Shown here: piece after piece, positions 464 through 37,690 of the stretch
Numbering within the stretch: the stretch's first letter is position 1
Layout of the letters: each line of letters begins with the position of its first letter
Assembly (NCBI GenBank): GCA_029260965.1
Contig: JAJDCG010000001.1
Span: forward strand, 445,803 to 509,802
DNA: 64,000 nucleotides
Reading direction: 5' to 3'
Source of the DNA: Candidatus Levyibacteriota bacterium
GTDB lineage: Bacteria; Patescibacteriota; Microgenomatia; Levybacterales; UBA12049
The notes under the pieces: generated by a model
Told to the model about the DNA's origin: nothing
Seen by the model: the letters and a program-made list of their open reading frames with translations, nothing else
Database searches by the model: none
Program-made: the position numbers and the translations under genes

Positions 464-3379
464 ATGAAACAAGCAAGAAAAATTATCCTCTTTTTGTTAT
501 CCCTCTTTTTACCATTTCTATTTGTAAGATTCACAGATAGTGTCCATGCAGAGACACTTAAAGTATGGGAAAAAGCAGAAAATACTATTTTTCCTCATAC
601 AATCCCCGAAAGTACAATATTACCCGGCGGGAATGTGATGGTGGTAGGTCAAGGTCTTGAATTTGAGAATGAAGCGGCTGAGATCTATGATCCAGGCACC
701 AACAGCTGGAAAGTATCAGTTGGTATTTCCCCACTTAGACTTGCCAATACAGTCACCTCGCTCAAAGACGGCAGGGTTTTGGTCGCAGGCGTAGGGTATA
801 GTCTGGAGGGTGATGAGCTGACATCAGAAATTTACGATCCGCAGACTGATACGTGGAGTGATGGAGGAGACATGAAAGAACTCCGGTTCATCCATGAGAC
901 AACCCTTCTTCAGGACGGCAGGGTACTGGTCACAGGTGGTCTTTGGTTTGATCGCATGAAAAGCGCTGAGATTTATGATCCCGAGACCAATCTGTGGTCA
1001 GATGCTGCACCTATGAGCAGGGAGAGGTTTTATCATACATCGACACTTCTTAATAATGGAAAAGTGTTGGTGGTAGGCGGTCAGTTCAATGGAGCTGAAT
1101 CCATAAAGAGTGCCGAACTATATGATCCCCAGACCAACAAGTGGTCGTCAGGAGGAAATATGCATGTGACAAGATACGCGCATACCGCGACTCTGTTGCA
1201 GGATGGCCGTGTGTTGGTGGCAGGAGGAGTAGAGGATGACAGTGTACGCTCAGTTGCCGAGATTTATGATCCTGTGACAGGTATATGGACCGAGACAGGT
1301 AGCATGAACACAACAAGATTTTCCCACAAAGCAACACTGCTACCTGATGGAAAGGTGTTGGTTACAGGTGGATCAACGCAGAATAATTTTAGTGACATTT
1401 TTTATACAAATACAGCTGAGATTTATGATCCCGCAACAAGAGAGTGGGAACTCATAAATGCCATGAATGATGGTAGGGTAGACCATGCGGCTGAGCTTTT
1501 ACCAAACGGAGACGTGCTGGTAATAGGAGGATTTGGGACTGGAGAGGATTGGCTGAGAAGTACTGAAATCCTGCGTTCATCAGTACCTGCTCCATTCCTA
1601 GATCTGCCGTGGGATTATGAAGGTCAAGGTAAGGAATTTGCGGATGTGGCGCTGGAGATAAATGCGTATTTTGATCATAGCTATCCTTTGTTTGGAAGTG
1701 GTTTGGGAGAGCCATTTGAGTATTTGAACCAGATAACCACATATATGGGCGAGAATACTATAAGGAAGCCTTACTCCCGTCACGATGGTTATGATTATGG
1801 TTCATATGCATCAGGTGTTAAAAATGGCGATTCTGTGTATCCTGCTGCTGCAGGTGTAGCCGAGTATGTTCGTGATCGGGCAGGCGGTCATGGCATTTTC
1901 ATAGATCATGGCAATGGATACCAGACAAGATATTATCATCTTCAGGATATAGGTTTAATTACAAAAACACCGGGTGTAAAAATATCTGTAAATAGAAATA
2001 CGGTGATTGGAAAAGTAGGATCAACAGGTGAGCACACAACAGGACCGCATATTCATATCGGTGTTTTTCAGGATAAGAATAAGGACGGAAATTTTGATGA
2101 TAATGTGCCAGATGGTGCGACTGATCCATTTGGTTGGCAATCAACCGAACCTGATCCTTGGGAGAATTATTCATTTTTACAAAACGGTGTGCAGAAGACA
2201 GGTAATAAAAGTTATTATCTATGGAAAAATAAAATACCAAATTTGAAGAAAGGGCTTTCCTCAAACGGCGGAGTATTTCATGTCGCGAACTTCGGTCTGA
2301 CATTCCCTGAGGATGAAAGTCTGGACGGCTTGACGCTGGAAGCAAAGCTCGGCCCTGTTGAGAGAGTTACCAATTCACTTGTCTCCCTGGGTCCGGTAAT
2401 TGATGTGATCCTAAAAGATCCGCTTGGAAGCCTCATAACTATTTTGACAAAACCACTTTTGGTGACAATTGATTTTAGTAAGGCAGATCTCTCTAGATTC
2501 AAACCCGGAACAATATCAATTTATTCAAGCAGTGACAACAGAAAAACCTGGACAAAAGAGGAGTCCTACGTTGATTATCTCAATAAAAAAGCATCTGCTG
2601 AGATGGACCATTTAACACATTTTGCGTTAATGGGTGAGCGGATAGATACACAGCCTCCCGCAACAACTGTGGGGCTTGACGGTCTCAAGGGTGAGAATAA
2701 TTGGTTCCGTTCGGATGTGGAAGTGTCATTGAAAACTAGTGATAATGAGGGTGGGCTTGGAGTAGAGATTGTTTTGTATAAAATCGAGGGAGGAGAATGG
2801 CAAGAGTACAAAGAGCCATTGAATTTCACTGAAAAAGGAGAATACAAAATAGAATATTATTCACAGGATAAAGATGGAAATTTAGAAGATCCAAAATCAA
2901 CGGAATTCCATATTGATAAAACAATACCTGAGGCAAAGATTTATTTTGACAGAAACAAAGGGGAGATGGTAATAGAGGGAGTGGATGATTCAGGAGATGT
3001 TGTCTTGGAGTATAAAGATTTAGAACGAAAGCGTGAGCAGATAGTGCTTGTTGACAAAGCAGGGAATAATCTTGTTATAGAAAATAGAGAAAAAGAAAAT
3101 GATAAAAGGCTAAAATTTGAAATTTACACGCTTACCTACAATCATACAGAGTTTTTGCAGGAAAAAAACAAATTTGAGGTTATGTATGAAGAAAAAAAAG
3201 GAGAAATAAAGAAGTTGGATCAAAATTTCAAGATAAAAGACCAGGAAAAAGTAAGCCTAAAATATGACATAAAAGACAACAAAACAAAAATTAAAGAAAA
3301 TAAAGAAAAAACAGAAGCAGACGGATTAAAAGCACTTATTTTGTTCACAGATCAGGGAGAGCTCAAGTATAGTTTTTAA
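464..3379 (+). CDS. secreted multidomain protein: N-terminal signal peptide, Kelch-type beta-propeller repeats, M23 (LytM-type) metallopeptidase domain, Lys/Glu-rich low-complexity tail
   Basis: N-terminus MKQARKIILFLLSLFLPFLFVRFTDSVHA is a signal peptide. About 7 repeats of the pattern DGRVLVxGG...EIYDP(x)T..W are typical of Kelch blades. HDGYDYG...GHGIFIDHGNGYQTRYYHL...GSTGEHTTGPHIHIG matches the M23 HxxxD / HxH zinc site. The C-terminal ~150 aa are K/E-rich. Confidence 0.7.
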   Translation: MKQARKIILFLLSLFLPFLFVRFTDSVHAETLKVWEKAENTIFPHTIPESTILPGGNVMVVGQGLEFENEAAEIYDPGTNSWKVSVGISPLRLANTVTSLKDGRVLVAGVGYSLEGDELTSEIYDPQTDTWSDGGDMKELRFIHETTLLQDGRVLVTGGLWFDRMKSAEIYDPETNLWSDAAPMSRERFYHTSTLLNNGKVLVVGGQFNGAESIKSAELYDPQTNKWSSGGNMHVTRYAHTATLLQDGRVLVAGGVEDDSVRSVAEIYDPVTGIWTETGSMNTTRFSHKATLLPDGKVLVTGGSTQNNFSDIFYTNTAEIYDPATREWELINAMNDGRVDHAAELLPNGDVLVIGGFGTGEDWLRSTEILRSSVPAPFLDLPWDYEGQGKEFADVALEINAYFDHSYPLFGSGLGEPFEYLNQITTYMGENTIRKPYSRHDGYDYGSYASGVKNGDSVYPAAAGVAEYVRDRAGGHGIFIDHGNGYQTRYYHLQDIGLITKTPGVKISVNRNTVIGKVGSTGEHTTGPHIHIGVFQDKNKDGNFDDNVPDGATDPFGWQSTEPDPWENYSFLQNGVQKTGNKSYYLWKNKIPNLKKGLSSNGGVFHVANFGLTFPEDESLDGLTLEAKLGPVERVTNSLVSLGPVIDVILKDPLGSLITILTKPLLVTIDFSKADLSRFKPGTISIYSSSDNRKTWTKEESYVDYLNKKASAEMDHLTHFALMGERIDTQPPATTVGLDGLKGENNWFRSDVEVSLKTSDNEGGLGVEIVLYKIEGGEWQEYKEPLNFTEKGEYKIEYYSQDKDGNLEDPKSTEFHIDKTIPEAKIYFDRNKGEMVIEGVDDSGDVVLEYKDLERKREQIVLVDKAGNNLVIENREKENDKRLKFEIYTLTYNHTEFLQEKNKFEVMYEEKKGEIKKLDQNFKIKDQEKVSLKYDIKDNKTKIKENKEKTEADGLKALILFTDQGELKYSF

Positions 3380-3463: not shown

Positions 3464-4396
3464 ATGGTTTCTATAGTTGTACCTGTTTTTAATGAGGAAG
3501 AGTCAATTGGTGCTTTTTTTACTGAGTTAAAAAAAGTTTTCCCCAAGATTAATGATACATTTGAGACGATATTTATCGATGATGGATCAACAGACAGGTC
3601 TCTTGATCTACTTAAAAATATTTCTGAAACACACAAAAACGTGCGAGTTTTTTCGTTCCGCAGGAATATGGGAAAGTCTGAAGCTTTGACTCTCGGATTT
3701 GCAAAGGCACAGGGTGACTATATAGTTACACTCGATGCCGATTTGCAGGATAAGCCTTCTGAGATTCCCTCATTACTTAAAAAAGCCAAAGAGGGTGCTG
3801 GGCTTGTCTGCGGGTGGCGAAAGAAGCGAAAAGACAAGAAGAAAATGCTGGCAATATCCAGGATTTTTAATAAAACGATGAATACGATTTTTTCACTCGA
3901 CATTCATGATTATAATTGTGGATTCAAGGTCTATACAAAAGATCTTGCTAAGTCTCTTAGGCTTTATGGAGGACTTCATAGATTTATACCATTAATTGCA
4001 GCACAAAACGGTTTTAGTGTGGTGGAGGAAGAGGTGGTTCACGAGCAGAGAAAATTTGGTAAGTCAAAATATGGATTTTCAAAAGTCTTTAAAGACATTC
4101 CAGACATGTTCACGATGCTTTTCCTTGTAAAATATGGGAAAAGGCCCATGCATTTTTTCGGAATTTTTGGAGGTGGGATCGGGCTTGTGGGTTTTATCAT
4201 TTTGGTTTATTTAACAGTTCTTCGTTTTTTGGGATATGCAATCGGTGGCAGGCCATTGCTTCTTTTTGGAATACTTCTGTTTATTACAGGACTTCAAATA
4301 TTTTTTACAGGATTTTTGGCTGATCTATTTATCAATATATCGCAGAACCGACTGGACAGTAAGCAGAGTTTTCCTCTGAAATTTTCAAGCGAATAA
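3464..4396 (+). CDS. GT2 polyprenyl-phosphate glycosyltransferase (GtrB/ArnC/DPM1-like) with C-terminal TM helices
   Basis: VSIVVPVFNEEESI, IDDGSTDRS, RRNMGKSEAL and TLDADLQDKPSEIP are spaced as in the GtrB/ArnC DXD catalytic core. Two hydrophobic C-terminal segments (FFGIFGGGIGLVGFIILVYL, LLLFGILLFITGLQIFFTGFL). Confidence 0.8.
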   Translation: MVSIVVPVFNEEESIGAFFTELKKVFPKINDTFETIFIDDGSTDRSLDLLKNISETHKNVRVFSFRRNMGKSEALTLGFAKAQGDYIVTLDADLQDKPSEIPSLLKKAKEGAGLVCGWRKKRKDKKKMLAISRIFNKTMNTIFSLDIHDYNCGFKVYTKDLAKSLRLYGGLHRFIPLIAAQNGFSVVEEEVVHEQRKFGKSKYGFSKVFKDIPDMFTMLFLVKYGKRPMHFFGIFGGGIGLVGFIILVYLTVLRFLGYAIGGRPLLLFGILLFITGLQIFFTGFLADLFINISQNRLDSKQSFPLKFSSE

Positions 4397-4452: not shown

Positions 4453-5028
4453 ATGAAAATAGGAATAGACATATCACAGACAGCATACGAAAATACAGGT
4501 GTTGCAAATTATGTGCGGAATTTGGTTGAGAATCTGGCAAAAATAGATAAGGAAAATGAATATATTCTTTTCTTTTCTTCTCTCAGAAAGGATATTCCCA
4601 GGTTTGTTAAGGATTTAATGAGGAATAATAAGAGATTTACTTTGAGAAGAAAAAGATTGCCCCCAACAATGTTGGATGTTTTTTGGAACAAGCTCCATGT
4701 AATGCCAATTGAAGATGTGGTTGGTGATGTGGATGTGTTTGTTTCAAATGATTGGGTTCAGCCCCCGACAAGACACGCAAAGATGGTTACTGTTTTGTAT
4801 GATTTGATCATTTATAAATATCCCGAAGAAACACACAATATGTTTAAATTTAATTTTAGAAGTATGAATATATCGCCAAATATAGTTGCATCGCAAAGAA
4901 AAAGATTGGATTGGGTAAAAAAGGAATGCGAGATGATCATTTGTATTTCTGAACAGACAAAAAAGGATGCAATTGAAATACTTGGTATTGAGGAGAATAG
5001 GCTGCGTGTGGTGAGGCCGGGGATTTAG
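4453..5028 (+). CDS. GT4 glycosyltransferase N-terminal domain only (191 aa); truncated paralog of the 14605..15726 gene, probably a gene remnant
   Basis: MKIGIDISQTAYENTGVANYVRNLVENLAKIDKENEYILFF is close to the N-terminus of ORF 14605 (MKIGIDCRLWSQTGVGRYIRNLVTELSKIDKTNEYVLFV). The ORF stops about where the C-terminal Rossmann domain (the EGFG motif region) should begin. Confidence 0.55.
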   Translation: MKIGIDISQTAYENTGVANYVRNLVENLAKIDKENEYILFFSSLRKDIPRFVKDLMRNNKRFTLRRKRLPPTMLDVFWNKLHVMPIEDVVGDVDVFVSNDWVQPPTRHAKMVTVLYDLIIYKYPEETHNMFKFNFRSMNISPNIVASQRKRLDWVKKECEMIICISEQTKKDAIEILGIEENRLRVVRPGI

Positions 5029-5070
5029 CCCCCTGGATGTAGGCATAGGATGTAGGATGTAAGATCTTAT

Positions 5071-5147
5071 ATAAATCATAAATCATAAATCATAAATCAT
5101 AAATCATAAATCATAAATCATAAATCATAAATCATAAATCATAAATC
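5071..5147. repeat. perfect heptanucleotide microsatellite (ATAAATC)x11 in the GT4-GT4 intergenic region, preceded by GGATGTAGG x2
   Basis: Read directly: 11 tandem copies of ATAAATC at 5071-5147, ending 5 nt before the ATG at 5153. GGATGTAGG occurs twice at about 5034-5055. Confidence 0.9.
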
Positions 5148-5152
5148 TAATT

Positions 5153-6334
5153 ATGTTAATAGGTATTGATGGAAATGAAGCGAACGTAGAAAAGCGTGTT
5201 GGAATAGGTCAGTATGCATCTGAACTATTGCGGGAGTTTAGTGTTAAGGATGATGCGTTAAGGGTGAAGTTTGTGGTTTATTTAAAAAATAAACCACTTT
5301 CTCATATGCCTGAAGAGACAGAAAATTTTAAGTATAGAGTTTTTGGTCCTGGCAAGTTCTGGACACAATGGAGGCTGCCTCTTGATTTATATACTCATTT
5401 GCCAAAGCCTGATGTTTTCTTCACACCCAGTCATTATGCGCCTCGCTTCTCACCTATACCCACTGTTATATCTGTTATGGATCTCTCCTACATATATTTT
5501 CCGCAGCTTTTTAATAAAAAAGACCTCAAACAGTTGACTGACTGGACTGAGTATTCAGTAAGACAAGCTAAAAGAATTATAACAATTAGTAATTTTAGTA
5601 AAAATGATATAATTAAAGAATACGGTTTAGCCTCGGATAAAATAGAGGTTACGTATCCTGGGATTAAAAATGATTTAGGATTTATGTCTTATGACTTGAG
5701 CAGTATGAATGATTTGAAGAAAAAATATAAAATAAGTGACAATTTTGTTCTTTTTGTTGGAACGCTCCAGCCTAGGAAAAATATTGTGCGTCTTGTCGAA
5801 GCTTTTTCAAAGATCAAGGATCAGACTTACCTGCCAGTACGGCAGGGATCTAAAAAAGATTCCTCGGCTGCGCCTCAGGATGATATTCAACTTGTGATTG
5901 TTGGTAAGAAGGGTTGGCAGTATGAGGAAATACTAGATGCGCCTCGTAAATTTGGTATAGAGAAATATGTAAAATTTCTTGATTCGGTTGATGACAGTGA
6001 CCTTTCTGTGTTATATAAGAATGCGGTTTGTTTTGTTCTTCCCTCACTTTACGAAGGGTTTGGTTTACCAGTGCTTGAGGCAATGCGCGAGGGATGCCCT
6101 GTTATTGCTAGCAATGTATCATCTCTTCCTGAGGCTGGTGGGGATGCGTGTCTTTACGTTGATCCAGAGGATGCGGATGATATTGCTCTTAAAATAAAGC
6201 AACTAATATCTGACAAGAAGTTGAGAAAATTATTGGTTGAAAAAGGTAAAAAACAAGTTTCACGTTTTGACTGGGAAAAAACGGCAAAACAAACACTAAG
6301 GGTTTTGGAAGAAGCAGCAAGGGACGATAAATGA
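5153..6334 (+). CDS. GT4 (GT-B fold) glycosyltransferase
   Basis: N-terminus MLIGIDGNEANVEKRVGIGQY. C-terminal domain has EGFGLPVLEAMREGCPVIASNVSSLPE, the GT4 nucleotide-sugar binding motif. Confidence 0.8.
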   Translation: MLIGIDGNEANVEKRVGIGQYASELLREFSVKDDALRVKFVVYLKNKPLSHMPEETENFKYRVFGPGKFWTQWRLPLDLYTHLPKPDVFFTPSHYAPRFSPIPTVISVMDLSYIYFPQLFNKKDLKQLTDWTEYSVRQAKRIITISNFSKNDIIKEYGLASDKIEVTYPGIKNDLGFMSYDLSSMNDLKKKYKISDNFVLFVGTLQPRKNIVRLVEAFSKIKDQTYLPVRQGSKKDSSAAPQDDIQLVIVGKKGWQYEEILDAPRKFGIEKYVKFLDSVDDSDLSVLYKNAVCFVLPSLYEGFGLPVLEAMREGCPVIASNVSSLPEAGGDACLYVDPEDADDIALKIKQLISDKKLRKLLVEKGKKQVSRFDWEKTAKQTLRVLEEAARDDK

Positions 6335-12352: not shown

Positions 12353-12457
12353 AAAACTAGTAAGTTTTCAGTATAATTAATAGTTTCCTAGTCTATAGTC
12401 AACAGATGCGAAATTACCTATCGACACCTTAGCCTCATGTTTTGCTATAATCATTTT

Positions 12458-36587: not shown

Positions 36588-37127
36588 ATGAAGTTGTTGA
36601 TTGTTGCAGGGGGTGGGGGGCATTTTGCCCCAGCACTCTCCGTTATAGAAAAGCTCCCCAAAGATTGGGATTTGCTTCTTGTTGGGCGCAAGTACTCGTT
36701 GGAGGGGGATGCAGCACTGTCCCTAGAGTACCAGACTGCTGAGCGGATGCATATACCTTTTCGCATGCTTACAACTGGTAGGATACAACGGAAGCTTACA
36801 CGTCATAGTTTACTTTCTCTTCTCAAGACTCCCATTGGTATGGTTCAGGCCTTGAGCATATTGAGAGATTTCAAACCCGACGTCGTTTTGTCATTTGGAG
36901 GATATGTTGCAGTACCATTGGTTCTTGCTGCGCATTTTTTGAGAATTCCTATCATTATTCATGAGCAGACATTTGGTGCAGGACTTGCCAATAAAATTTC
37001 CAGCCGTTTCGCTGACAAAGTTTGTATATCTTGGGAGGAGTCTCGTAAATATTTTCCTAACGGGAAAGTTGTGGTAACAGGAAATCCTGTTCGAAAATTT
37101 CAAATTTCAAATTTCAAATTTCAGTAG
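36588..37127 (+). CDS. murG: murG N-terminal segment; frame ends inside an (AAATTTC)x4 repeat
   Basis: MKLLIVAGGGGHFAPALSV (G-loop 1), IIIHEQTFGAGLANK, VVTGNPVRKFQISNFKFQ*. The same gene continues in another frame. Confidence 0.8.
   Translation: MKLLIVAGGGGHFAPALSVIEKLPKDWDLLLVGRKYSLEGDAALSLEYQTAERMHIPFRMLTTGRIQRKLTRHSLLSLLKTPIGMVQALSILRDFKPDVVLSFGGYVAVPLVLAAHFLRIPIIIHEQTFGAGLANKISSRFADKVCISWEESRKYFPNGKVVVTGNPVRKFQISNFKFQ
37095..37122. repeat. heptanucleotide tandem repeat (AAATTTC)x4 at the murG frameshift
   Basis: Read directly: tcga + 4 x aaatttc + ag + tag. Confidence 0.9.
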
Positions 37128-37129
37128 AC

Positions 37130-37690
37130 CTGCCACTTCTTTATGTAACAGGGGGGAGTGCCGGGGCGCATGGAGTTAATGTTCTTATCGAGGGGTGTCT
37201 AGAAGTGCTCCTTAAAAATTACAATATTATTCACCAGACAGGTGATGCACAAGAGTTTAAAGATTTTGATCGACTTAAAAACCTGAAAAACACATTGCCG
37301 AAAGATTTGCAAGAAAGGTATTTTTTAACAAAATTTGTAGACCCACAGGATATTTCAGGAATTTTGGAAAAAGCGGATCTTGTGATAAGTCGTTCGGGGA
37401 TAAATACGGTAACTGAAATCCTTTATTTTGGAAAACCATGCATTTTGATACCACTTCCTCATAGTCAGGCTCAAGAGCAAGAGATAAATGCTAGATTTGT
37501 TCAGGATCAAGGTCTTGGATTGGTGGCAGATCAGGGTAGCTTAAATCCAGAAAAATTAACAGCCATTATCCAGACGGTTTCAGGAAATCTTGATAAGTAT
37601 AAGAAAGCTGCAAAAAAGACGAAAAGTTTAATCAAAGAGGATGCATCTGATAGGATTATAAGTGTTGTTAAAAAATGCGTGAAAAAATAA
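37130..37690 (+). CDS. murG: murG C-terminal segment (frame +2 relative to the N-terminal segment); the frame is open from 37130 and the track lists it from 37205
   Basis: The frame upstream of the track ORF reads VDLPLLYVTGGSAGAHGVNVLIEGCLEVLLK..., i.e. the conserved second G-loop GGSxGA of the MurG C-domain. Confidence 0.75.
   Translation: MPLLYVTGGSAGAHGVNVLIEGCLEVLLKNYNIIHQTGDAQEFKDFDRLKNLKNTLPKDLQERYFLTKFVDPQDISGILEKADLVISRSGINTVTEILYFGKPCILIPLPHSQAQEQEINARFVQDQGLGLVADQGSLNPEKLTAIIQTVSGNLDKYKKAAKKTKSLIKEDASDRIISVVKKCVKK

Follow-up and report, generated by a model that had tools for sequence, protein, structure and literature searches.

A perfect microsatellite of eleven ATAAATC units separates two glycosyltransferase genes in a 64-kb stretch of DNA from a Candidatus Levyibacteriota bacterium (the window; 64,000 nt, positions 445,803 to 509,802 of contig JAJDCG010000001.1, GenBank assembly GCA_029260965.1). 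The gene on the 5' side of the repeat, here called Ndom, encodes the N-terminal domain of a family 4 glycosyltransferase (GT4) as a protein of its own, and the gene on the 3' side encodes a complete GT4 enzyme. The best explanation of the site as a whole is that Ndom makes a real protein and that a slippage-prone repeat grades the expression of the GT4 gene or uncouples it from Ndom, a combination that we regard as close to, but just short of, an even call. A mutable expression dial of this kind, or a neutral by-product of slippage, is more likely than a classic on/off switch. The features of the site were read directly from the letters or called with the tandem-array caller TRF, and their coordinates are positions in the window.

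3464..4396, + strand: GT2 glycosyltransferase, probably the first gene of the transcription unit (Pfam Glycos_transf_2, 5e-34)
4453..5028, + strand: Ndom, stand-alone GT4 N-terminal (Rossmann) domain protein, 191 aa (PF13439 only)
5026-5028, + strand: stop codon TAG that ends open reading frame (ORF) 4453-5028 (read directly)
5029..5152, + strand: intercistronic spacer, 124 nt (read directly)
5035..5065, + strand: degenerate GGATGTA x4.6 array (TRF)
5035-5043 and 5048-5056, + strand: two copies of GGATGTAGG (read directly)
5071..5147, + strand: (ATAAATC)x11 heptanucleotide microsatellite, non-coding (TRF)
Between the array end and ATG 5153, + strand: TAATT, 5 nt (read directly)
5153..6334, + strand: complete GT4 glycosyltransferase, 393 aa, the usual downstream partner of Ndom (PF13439 and PF00534)

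The ATAAATC array has a period of 7 and 11.0 copies with 100% matches over 77 nt (TRF score 154). Within the window, exact occurrences of the 14-mer ATAAATCATAAATC are confined to the array, and their observed count was reached by 0 shuffles. An earlier model-made account of this DNA, which used the letters alone (the sequence-only reading), had described a perfect array ending 5 nt before the GT4 start codon in a 124-nt spacer that is almost wholly repetitive, with GGATGTAGG twice and then the array; TRF and direct reading confirmed both points. Its description of a genuine non-triplet microsatellite adjoining a surface-glycan glycosyltransferase gene was borne out by the TRF call and the GT4 domains of ORF 5153-6334. 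Because 7 and 3 share no factor, every frame of 5071-5147 meets a stop within three units (TAA on the + strand, TGA on the - strand) and all six frames are closed; the array therefore cannot be coding, and frameshift switching is impossible. Spacer 5029-5152 gave no terminator match, no + strand promoter match and no meaningful match to Rfam. Folded as RNA it was no better than shuffles (z +0.6 to +1.15), with the whole array unpaired in the minimum free energy (MFE) and centroid folds, and the remaining structure was only a 9-bp stub hairpin at 5050-5072.

Tandem arrays were surveyed in the window and 101 related loci (634 kb; the loci are cited below by labels such as L010). In this DNA the ATAAATC array had the top TRF score and an array in L010 the second, and both of them lie at the Ndom-GT4 junction. 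The ATAAATC array itself was absent in 120 related loci. It is thus no widespread dispersed element in related genomes; such an element would have told against the locus-specific role given to it in the sequence-only reading. Tracts of (ATAAATC)x4 or longer were present in 31 unrelated viral contigs (L123-L153), several of which are giant-virus metagenome-assembled genomes (MAGs), and the unit has arisen as a microsatellite there too. With 0 of the 120 related loci carrying it, and sporadic microsatellites in unrelated viral contigs only, a dispersed element was ruled out.

We are highly confident that Ndom is a functional, conserved and selected stand-alone GT4 N-domain protein. It matched Pfam Glyco_transf_4 (PF13439) over positions 3-166 of 170 (E 1.3e-7, above the cut-off). 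Neither Pfam nor the C-domain hidden Markov model (HMM) Glycos_transf_1 gave a C-domain match, that is, one of the two Rossmann domains of a GT4 enzyme is missing, and the C-terminus falls exactly at the GT4 interdomain linker. A search of 1.84 billion representatives returned 1,585 matches to Ndom at E<=1e-3, and the family comprises ~1,500 stand-alone proteins of ~180-190 aa in Patescibacteria. The best 120 homologs are 176-229 aa long, all but one of them <=200 aa, and 54-71% identical to Ndom; the nearest full-length GT4s (360-390 aa) are 40-54% identical over their N-halves. All aligned members end in ...PG(I/L/F). The ratio of nonsynonymous to synonymous substitution rates (dN/dS) was 0.075, 0.114, 0.156 and 0.10 in four informative pairs, and by this measure Ndom is evidently under purifying selection. 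The AlphaFold (AF2) model (pLDDT 87, pTM 0.82) has the fold of a GT-B N-domain, and Foldseek matched it to the N-halves of MshA, PglA and WbnH. No NCBIfam model covers the family.

The sequence-only reading had taken ORF 4453-5028 for a truncated GT4 paralog close to the N-terminus of ORF 14605. The N-domain-only architecture (PF13439) stood, whereas recent decay did not agree with a conserved family at dN/dS 0.07-0.16, and ORF 14605, although the closest Ndom paralog in the window, is merely 26% identical (E 4e-12). A pseudogene or recently truncated paralog was rejected on the same dN/dS values together with the length and the ...PG(I/L/F) end that are shared family-wide. L120 carries a full-length GT4 with 45% identity to Ndom; it is joined with a -4 nt overlap to an ortholog of the 393-aa GT4 (42%, E 6e-115), and a hexapeptide transferase gene follows. 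This arrangement makes Ndom the positional ortholog of a GT4, once full length, whose C-domain was lost long ago. It is also an autonomous gene, since about 6-7 species have Ndom with no GT4 neighbour. The 64-kb window contains no C-domain-only ORF, as the C-domain HMM matched only five full-length GT4s, and this search ruled out a C-domain-only partner for Ndom in the window. We infer that Ndom acts as a non-catalytic partner or adaptor.

The most variable loop of Ndom (aa ~46-57) is itself encoded by heptamer arrays, at L003 7596-7626, L037, L039, L073, L076, L012 1147-1178 and L013 7135-7165, and three heptamers in it give a 7-residue peptide repeat (KFKIQNS-like). A perfect (AATTTTC)x4.4 that encodes the peptide NFQFSIFNFQS is common to five species with otherwise saturated synonymous sites, which suggests from the sequence comparison that the DNA repeat in the loop is itself maintained or homogenised.

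Shine-Dalgarno (SD)-like motifs, even as 4-mers, precede only 7 of the 54 window genes. Hexamers resembling a -10 element (TATAAT and variants) stand 6-8 nt before 13 of 53 start codons, with ~1.3 expected, a position that points to a leaderless-mRNA layout widespread in the genome. The GT2 gene at 3464 has TGgTAAAAT 6 nt before its ATG, in the leaderless-type -10 position. Starts 5153 and 4453 have no -10-like hexamer 6-8 nt upstream, and 5153 also lacks an SD motif; the best hexamers at the genome-typical distance before 5153 are CATAAA and AATCAT, each 4/6, and none reaches 5/6 with both A2 and T6. Many operon-internal genes of the genome abut or overlap the preceding gene. Judged from this layout, the array is most likely part of a polycistronic mRNA, because the genes abut in most relatives, and that mRNA most likely starts near 3464, because of these three starts only 3464 has a -10 and the spacer has no terminator or promoter match.

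These observations bear on classic phase variation of the promoter type, in which changes in unit number would alter the spacing of promoter elements, or of promoter and start codon, and turn the GT4 on or off. A perfect non-triplet simple sequence repeat (SSR) directly 5' of a surface-glycan glycosyltransferase gene is what such a system would look like, and the promoters of this genome abut start codons, so the array occupies the place for a promoter. However, the spacer has no + strand -35/-10 match and its two candidate hexamers are merely 4/6; the 77-nt array is too long to lie between -35 and -10; the array is periodic, so the last unit stays equally far from the ATG whatever the copy number; and the junction in relatives leaves no room for a promoter. 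We consider this explanation very unlikely. A + strand promoter in the array was also rejected as a candidate, with no match and no -10-like hexamer 6-8 nt before 5153. The mechanism proposed in the sequence-only reading, a change of promoter-to-start spacing or phasing, failed on the absence of a flanking -35/-10 pair, the 77-nt length of the array and the lack of a -10 at 6-8 nt. Its broader term, phase-variable locus, held in part: a perfect and slippable repeat (11.0 perfect copies) and an envelope gene are present, but the repeat lies neither in an ORF nor between -35 and -10, having stops in all frames and no promoter hexamers. A graded or uncoupling effect of a slippage-prone repeat is the plausible weaker form of that claim, as far as the sequence can tell.

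On the minus strand a promoter-like match, TTAACA-17-TATGAT (10/12, 5159->5131), points from the first GT4 codons into the array, and TATGAT is repeated on that strand in every array unit, so that antisense transcription toward Ndom is conceivable. The spacing of this match is unaffected by the number of units.

We propose that in an ancestor of the Levybacteria-type lineage a full-length GT4 gene stood directly 5' of the GT4 gene now at 5153, and that the upstream gene lost its C-domain long ago and kept its N-domain under selection. A heptanucleotide microsatellite of the kind typical of the lineage has expanded in the normally tight Ndom-GT4 joint, at the site of the 3' hairpin arm of relatives. 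The consequence would be post-transcriptional, with 124 nt of unstructured AU-rich RNA between the Ndom stop and the GT4 start. Translation of the GT4 would be uncoupled from that of Ndom, and GT4 output would vary with tract length, 7 nt at a time, so that the array would be a graded dial and no on/off switch. A post-transcriptional effect is the most likely kind because the array is untranslatable and has no promoter elements, SD motifs are little used and operon genes abut. That array length affects GT4 expression at all we put forward tentatively.

Slippage of heptamers could be followed at a second array in the window.

37095..37123, + strand: sister array (AAATTTC)x4.1 in the murG interdomain linker (TRF)
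36588..37690, + strand: murG, split (PF03033 1e-28, PF04101 1e-25)

This is the only other perfect array with >=4 units in the window. The window murG is broken at the AAATTTC array, with the N-domain ORF (36588-37127) in frame 0 and the C-domain in frame 2, and +1 or -2 units would restore a single ORF of 369 or 362 aa. The exact 369-aa, 5-unit MurG was found in the Logan assembly of run SRR15505512, in a contig that has 0 mismatches to the window over 7,110 nt and one 7-nt gap, located in the AAATTTC array. Four versus five units thus toggle murG between split and intact in the two assemblies. Because the closest 120 MurG homologs are all full length, the 4-unit form is a frameshift allele and not a trait of the lineage. 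We infer that both alleles are present in the SRR15505512 reads, because 150-nt reads easily cover arrays of 29-36 nt. A whole unit thus separates the two assemblies at the one perfect array open to such a comparison, and imperfect arrays are identical between the window and the Logan assembly. On this basis we think it probable that the ATAAATC array is hypermutable.

The preference for heptamers is broad. In the survey, array periods were multiples of 7 in 116 of 221 arrays, with periods 7, 14 and 21 dominant, and the exact self-match runs of >=12 nt in the window all had lags of 7, 14 or 21. The units vary widely and are rich in AT, and period-7 arrays lie mostly inside genes (95 coding, 20 intergenic). 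At lags 7 and 21 the window also has a weak rise in identity that is genome-wide. A 7-aa difference between assemblies in the GT4 paralog at 12437 was set aside as merely a different start-codon call. Scans of genomes and metagenomes found no same-species contig, and among the near-identical locus pairs of the metagenome loci none was informative about arrays.

The orthologous loci were compared in a junction survey of 63 loci with a GT4 ortholog 3' of Ndom; these orthologs of GT4 5153-6334 are 41-62% identical to it. The spacer measures -7 to +19 nt in 41 of the 63, including 12 loci with a 4-nt ATGA-type overlap and 12 with a 2-nt gap, and L024, the closest Ndom relative, has a 2-nt spacer. 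The expanded spacers differ in kind, each independent of the rest, and contain period-7/8 arrays, hairpins or gene cassettes. In L010 (AAATTGCT)x6 fills the entire 47-nt spacer from stop codon to ATG, and L092, L031, L049 and L014 have degenerate 7/8-nt arrays. Strong spacer hairpins (z -3.2 to -5.9) occur in L012, L036, L049, L064, L084, L103 and the L165 species; of the 12 expanded spacers folded as a set, 6 had z <= -3.2, as had L165, with L103 at z -5.9. Arrays scoring >=50 were found at 9/63 junctions and at 13/459 other gene gaps of the same loci (Fisher p 4e-4), and among gaps >20 nt at 9/23 junctions vs 13/203 others (p 5e-5).

Several side observations concern the same junction. The L010 array (4006-4054; = L104, L105) comes from another Levybacteria species and has the look of an ancestral ~8-nt spacer multiplied in tandem. 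Inserts were seen in L013, L029, L045, L055 and L058 (436-458 nt), L033 and L044 (~1.1 kb) and L009 and L056 (1.6-2 kb). They encode the 23S rRNA intervening-sequence protein (23S_rRNA_IVP, PF05635), some between inverted AAGTATT/AATACTT arrays; Fic+HTH proteins with 10-nt TGGAAATAT arrays on the 5' side; and also large membrane proteins. About half of the intergenic tandem arrays in all loci end <=8 nt from the next start codon. In L092 (1223-1709) ~30 GT4 codons beside an AAAGTCA repeat are followed by an unrelated dehydrogenase-like frame, which may be a chimeric contig or a rearrangement at the heptamer array.

The main rival is that the array is a neutral by-product: slippage in this lineage would be biased to heptamers and octamers, the junction would tolerate repeats and insertions, and the window would hold the longest tolerated array, with no regulatory role. 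We regard this as possible though doubtful. Period-7 arrays are found everywhere and mostly in genes, and unrelated cassettes (23S_rRNA_IVP, Fic, membrane proteins) use the same junction. On the other hand, arrays are 6- to 9-fold enriched at the junction over neighbouring gaps, the joint is kept tight in two-thirds of species, suggesting that spacing matters, and eleven perfect units imply recent or ongoing expansion and not slow drift. Further points weigh against an expression dial, and several of them favour neutrality. Other genes of the cluster have SD-less gaps of 50-84 nt, so translation need not suffer from a long spacer and array length could have no effect at all. In other species the junction receives whole gene cassettes, and it may simply accept insertions without any selection for variability. 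The 4 and 5 units of murG could in principle reflect the choice of an assembler and not heterogeneity, and in other species arrays that have decayed do not vary among as many as 10 contigs. The L010 octamer array has 6 copies, without variation, in two assemblies that are 100% identical and so not independent, and Logan contigs break there too. In the only other assembly of the window DNA (Logan, k=31) both contigs end k-1 nt inside the ATAAATC array, because the tandem repeat is longer than k.

This last behaviour also raises the question of an assembly artefact, in which the array or its copy number was made by short-read assembly. Repeats longer than k do break or collapse assemblies, and the Logan contigs stop inside the array. 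But both Logan contig ends carry the unit of the window and its unique flanks, and ordinary reads can span 77 nt; doubt attaches to the precise count of 11 and not to the array as such, and an artefact is extremely improbable.

The spacers of relatives give an indication of where the window spacer came from. The closest relative with long contigs is the L164-L173 species (71% Ndom identity), which has a 79-nt spacer (8538-8616 in L165), conserved across nine spanning contigs, one single-nucleotide polymorphism aside. The L165 spacer forms a hairpin of inverted heptamers (-33.9 kcal/mol, z -5.9), the G-rich 5' arm of which aligns with the GGATGTA array of the window and with the L031 spacer. 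The ATAAATC array sits where relatives have the 3' hairpin arm, and ATAAATC matches their 3'-arm heptamer TTAAGTC at 5/7 positions (read directly). The window spacer was rejected as an inverted-array hairpin element itself, having no inverted arms and a fold no better than shuffles. Among the L164-L173 strains the only short indels in 16.5 kb were a 24-nt segment, within a heptamer-array region of a PMT_2 gene, and an indel of 1 nt next to a rearrangement of 1.4 kb.

The array might accordingly be no more than the relic of a hairpin or cassette element, descended from an inverted-heptamer stem-loop of the kind seen in L165, L103 and the 23S_rRNA_IVP flanks, whose 3' arm underwent runaway expansion and whose function was lost with the hairpin. 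The alignment of the left spacer part with the 5' arm of the L165 and L031 spacers, the 5/7 match of the heptamers and the strong folds of L165, L103 and the other expanded spacers agree with such a descent. It would, however, account for the origin of the array and not for its present effect, and is compatible with the best explanation; moreover the present spacer is unfolded, and L024, closest in Ndom, has a spacer of only 2 nt. As an explanation in its own right a relic is very improbable.

The nearest documented analogue of the ATAAATC array is the (ATCTTTC)n tract of H. influenzae hmw1A/hmw2A, where expression is inversely proportional to repeat number and graded (PMC12721329). There, 10 repeats and a G-rich arm form a hairpin that is cleaved by RNase III (PMC12721329), and the unit is 7, 8 or 9 nt depending on the strain (PMC2651432). 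Both systems have a long non-coding heptanucleotide microsatellite upstream of a surface-related gene, and the variety of hmw unit lengths is paralleled by the heptamer in the window and the octamer in L010. In contrast, the hmw repeats lie ~70-100 bp upstream in a monocistronic 5' untranslated region, whereas the window array is intercistronic and 5 nt from the ATG; and hmw acts through a cleaved hairpin, whereas the prediction for the window array is that it stays unpaired, and its genome seldom uses SD motifs. A rheostat of exactly the hmw type, in which transcribed repeats and the G-rich left arm form a long hairpin processed by RNase III, is suggested by the 11-unit heptamer SSR beside a G-rich segment 5' of a surface-related gene. 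It is nevertheless highly improbable, as the predicted fold leaves the array unpaired with an MFE no better than shuffles, and GAUGUAG and AUAAAUC pair at 5/7 positions in blocks of 2-3 bp (read directly).

Three other families of systems offer partial parallels. In the glycosyltransferase contingency loci of lipooligosaccharide and lipopolysaccharide (LOS/LPS) synthesis in Haemophilus, Neisseria and Campylobacter, the repeat lies in the ORF or between -35 and -10. The window resembles them in joining an SSR to a glycan glycosyltransferase, and whole-unit slippage, which alters expression in those loci, has a counterpart in the murG array, where 4 vs 5 units toggle the frame. The ATAAATC array differs in lying at neither of their two positions, and its host is an environmental member of the Patescibacteria, whereas theirs are host-adapted pathogens. 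In the split GT-B enzyme Alg14/Alg13, Alg14 pairs with the C-domain-only Alg13. Ndom is like Alg14 in being a GT-B N-domain as a separate polypeptide beside a related gene; unlike Alg14, it has a complete two-domain GT4 as neighbour and no C-domain-only ORF in 64 kb, and about 6-7 species have Ndom without any GT4 neighbour. Intercistronic stem-loops and 23S rRNA intervening-sequence elements are linked to RNase III. Relatives hold strong hairpins, or intervening-sequence-protein cassettes between inverted heptamer arrays, at the very junction studied here; the window spacer keeps a left part homologous to one arm but has lost the complementary arm, and does not fold. As to the heptamers at large, the STRR repeats of cyanobacteria are heptanucleotides of a few fixed units, mostly intergenic. 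They resemble those of the window lineage as tandem heptamers that form a genome-wide lineage signature, whereas the units in the window lineage are diverse, AT-rich and mostly inside genes. Slipped-strand contingency loci have been reviewed (PMC11868660). Our literature search turned up neither SSR contingency loci nor heptamer repeats nor phase variation reported for Patescibacteria; the closest case is a hypervariable gene with in-frame 9-mers in a Gracilibacterium (PMC6851277).

GT4 5153-6334 is full length with both GT-B domains (PF13439 and PF00534, 1.4e-36), and it had no NCBIfam equivalog at or above the cut-off. It belongs to a co-directional cluster of GT2, Ndom, GT4, a hexapeptide acyltransferase, GT2, a 1,014-aa Wzy_C-like membrane protein and PMT_2, which continues with further GT4 and GT2 genes, a nucleotidyltransferase and a Bac_transf initiating transferase. 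The gene is thus an envelope or surface gene of the kind found in contingency loci, placed within a GT2/GT4/Wzy_C/PMT_2/Bac_transf glycan cluster. The same gene order with GT2-Ndom-GT4 was seen in about 13 species representatives, and the homologs and related loci carry the names Levybacteria or Patescibacteria. Directly 5' of the cluster, a 971-aa protein (464-3379) has Kelch beta-propeller repeats and a Peptidase_M23 domain.

The prevailing view of candidate-phyla-radiation bacteria is of organisms attached to other cells; their envelope glycans likely matter for attachment and phage evasion. Ndom, a selected GT4 N-domain that is widespread and lacks both a catalytic half and a curated family model, deserves attention. 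If heptamer arrays vary at appreciable rates, they would be a cheap way for very small genomes to diversify surface and cell wall, and they would systematically give rise to what look like frameshifts and to broken contigs in MAGs, as with murG, which is split in the deposited genome and intact in the other assembly. More widely, though we rate this as unlikely, heptamer slippage could be a lineage-wide generator of diversity in Levybacteria-type Patescibacteria, alongside an uncharacterised family of stand-alone GT4 N-domains. Perfect 7-nt arrays would be seeded in loops, linkers and junctions of cell-envelope glycosyltransferase genes, where they would toggle frames or tune the coupling of cistrons. 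If true, this would be a contingency-locus system in tiny, probably host-attached cells, whereas such systems have so far come mainly from host-adapted pathogens.

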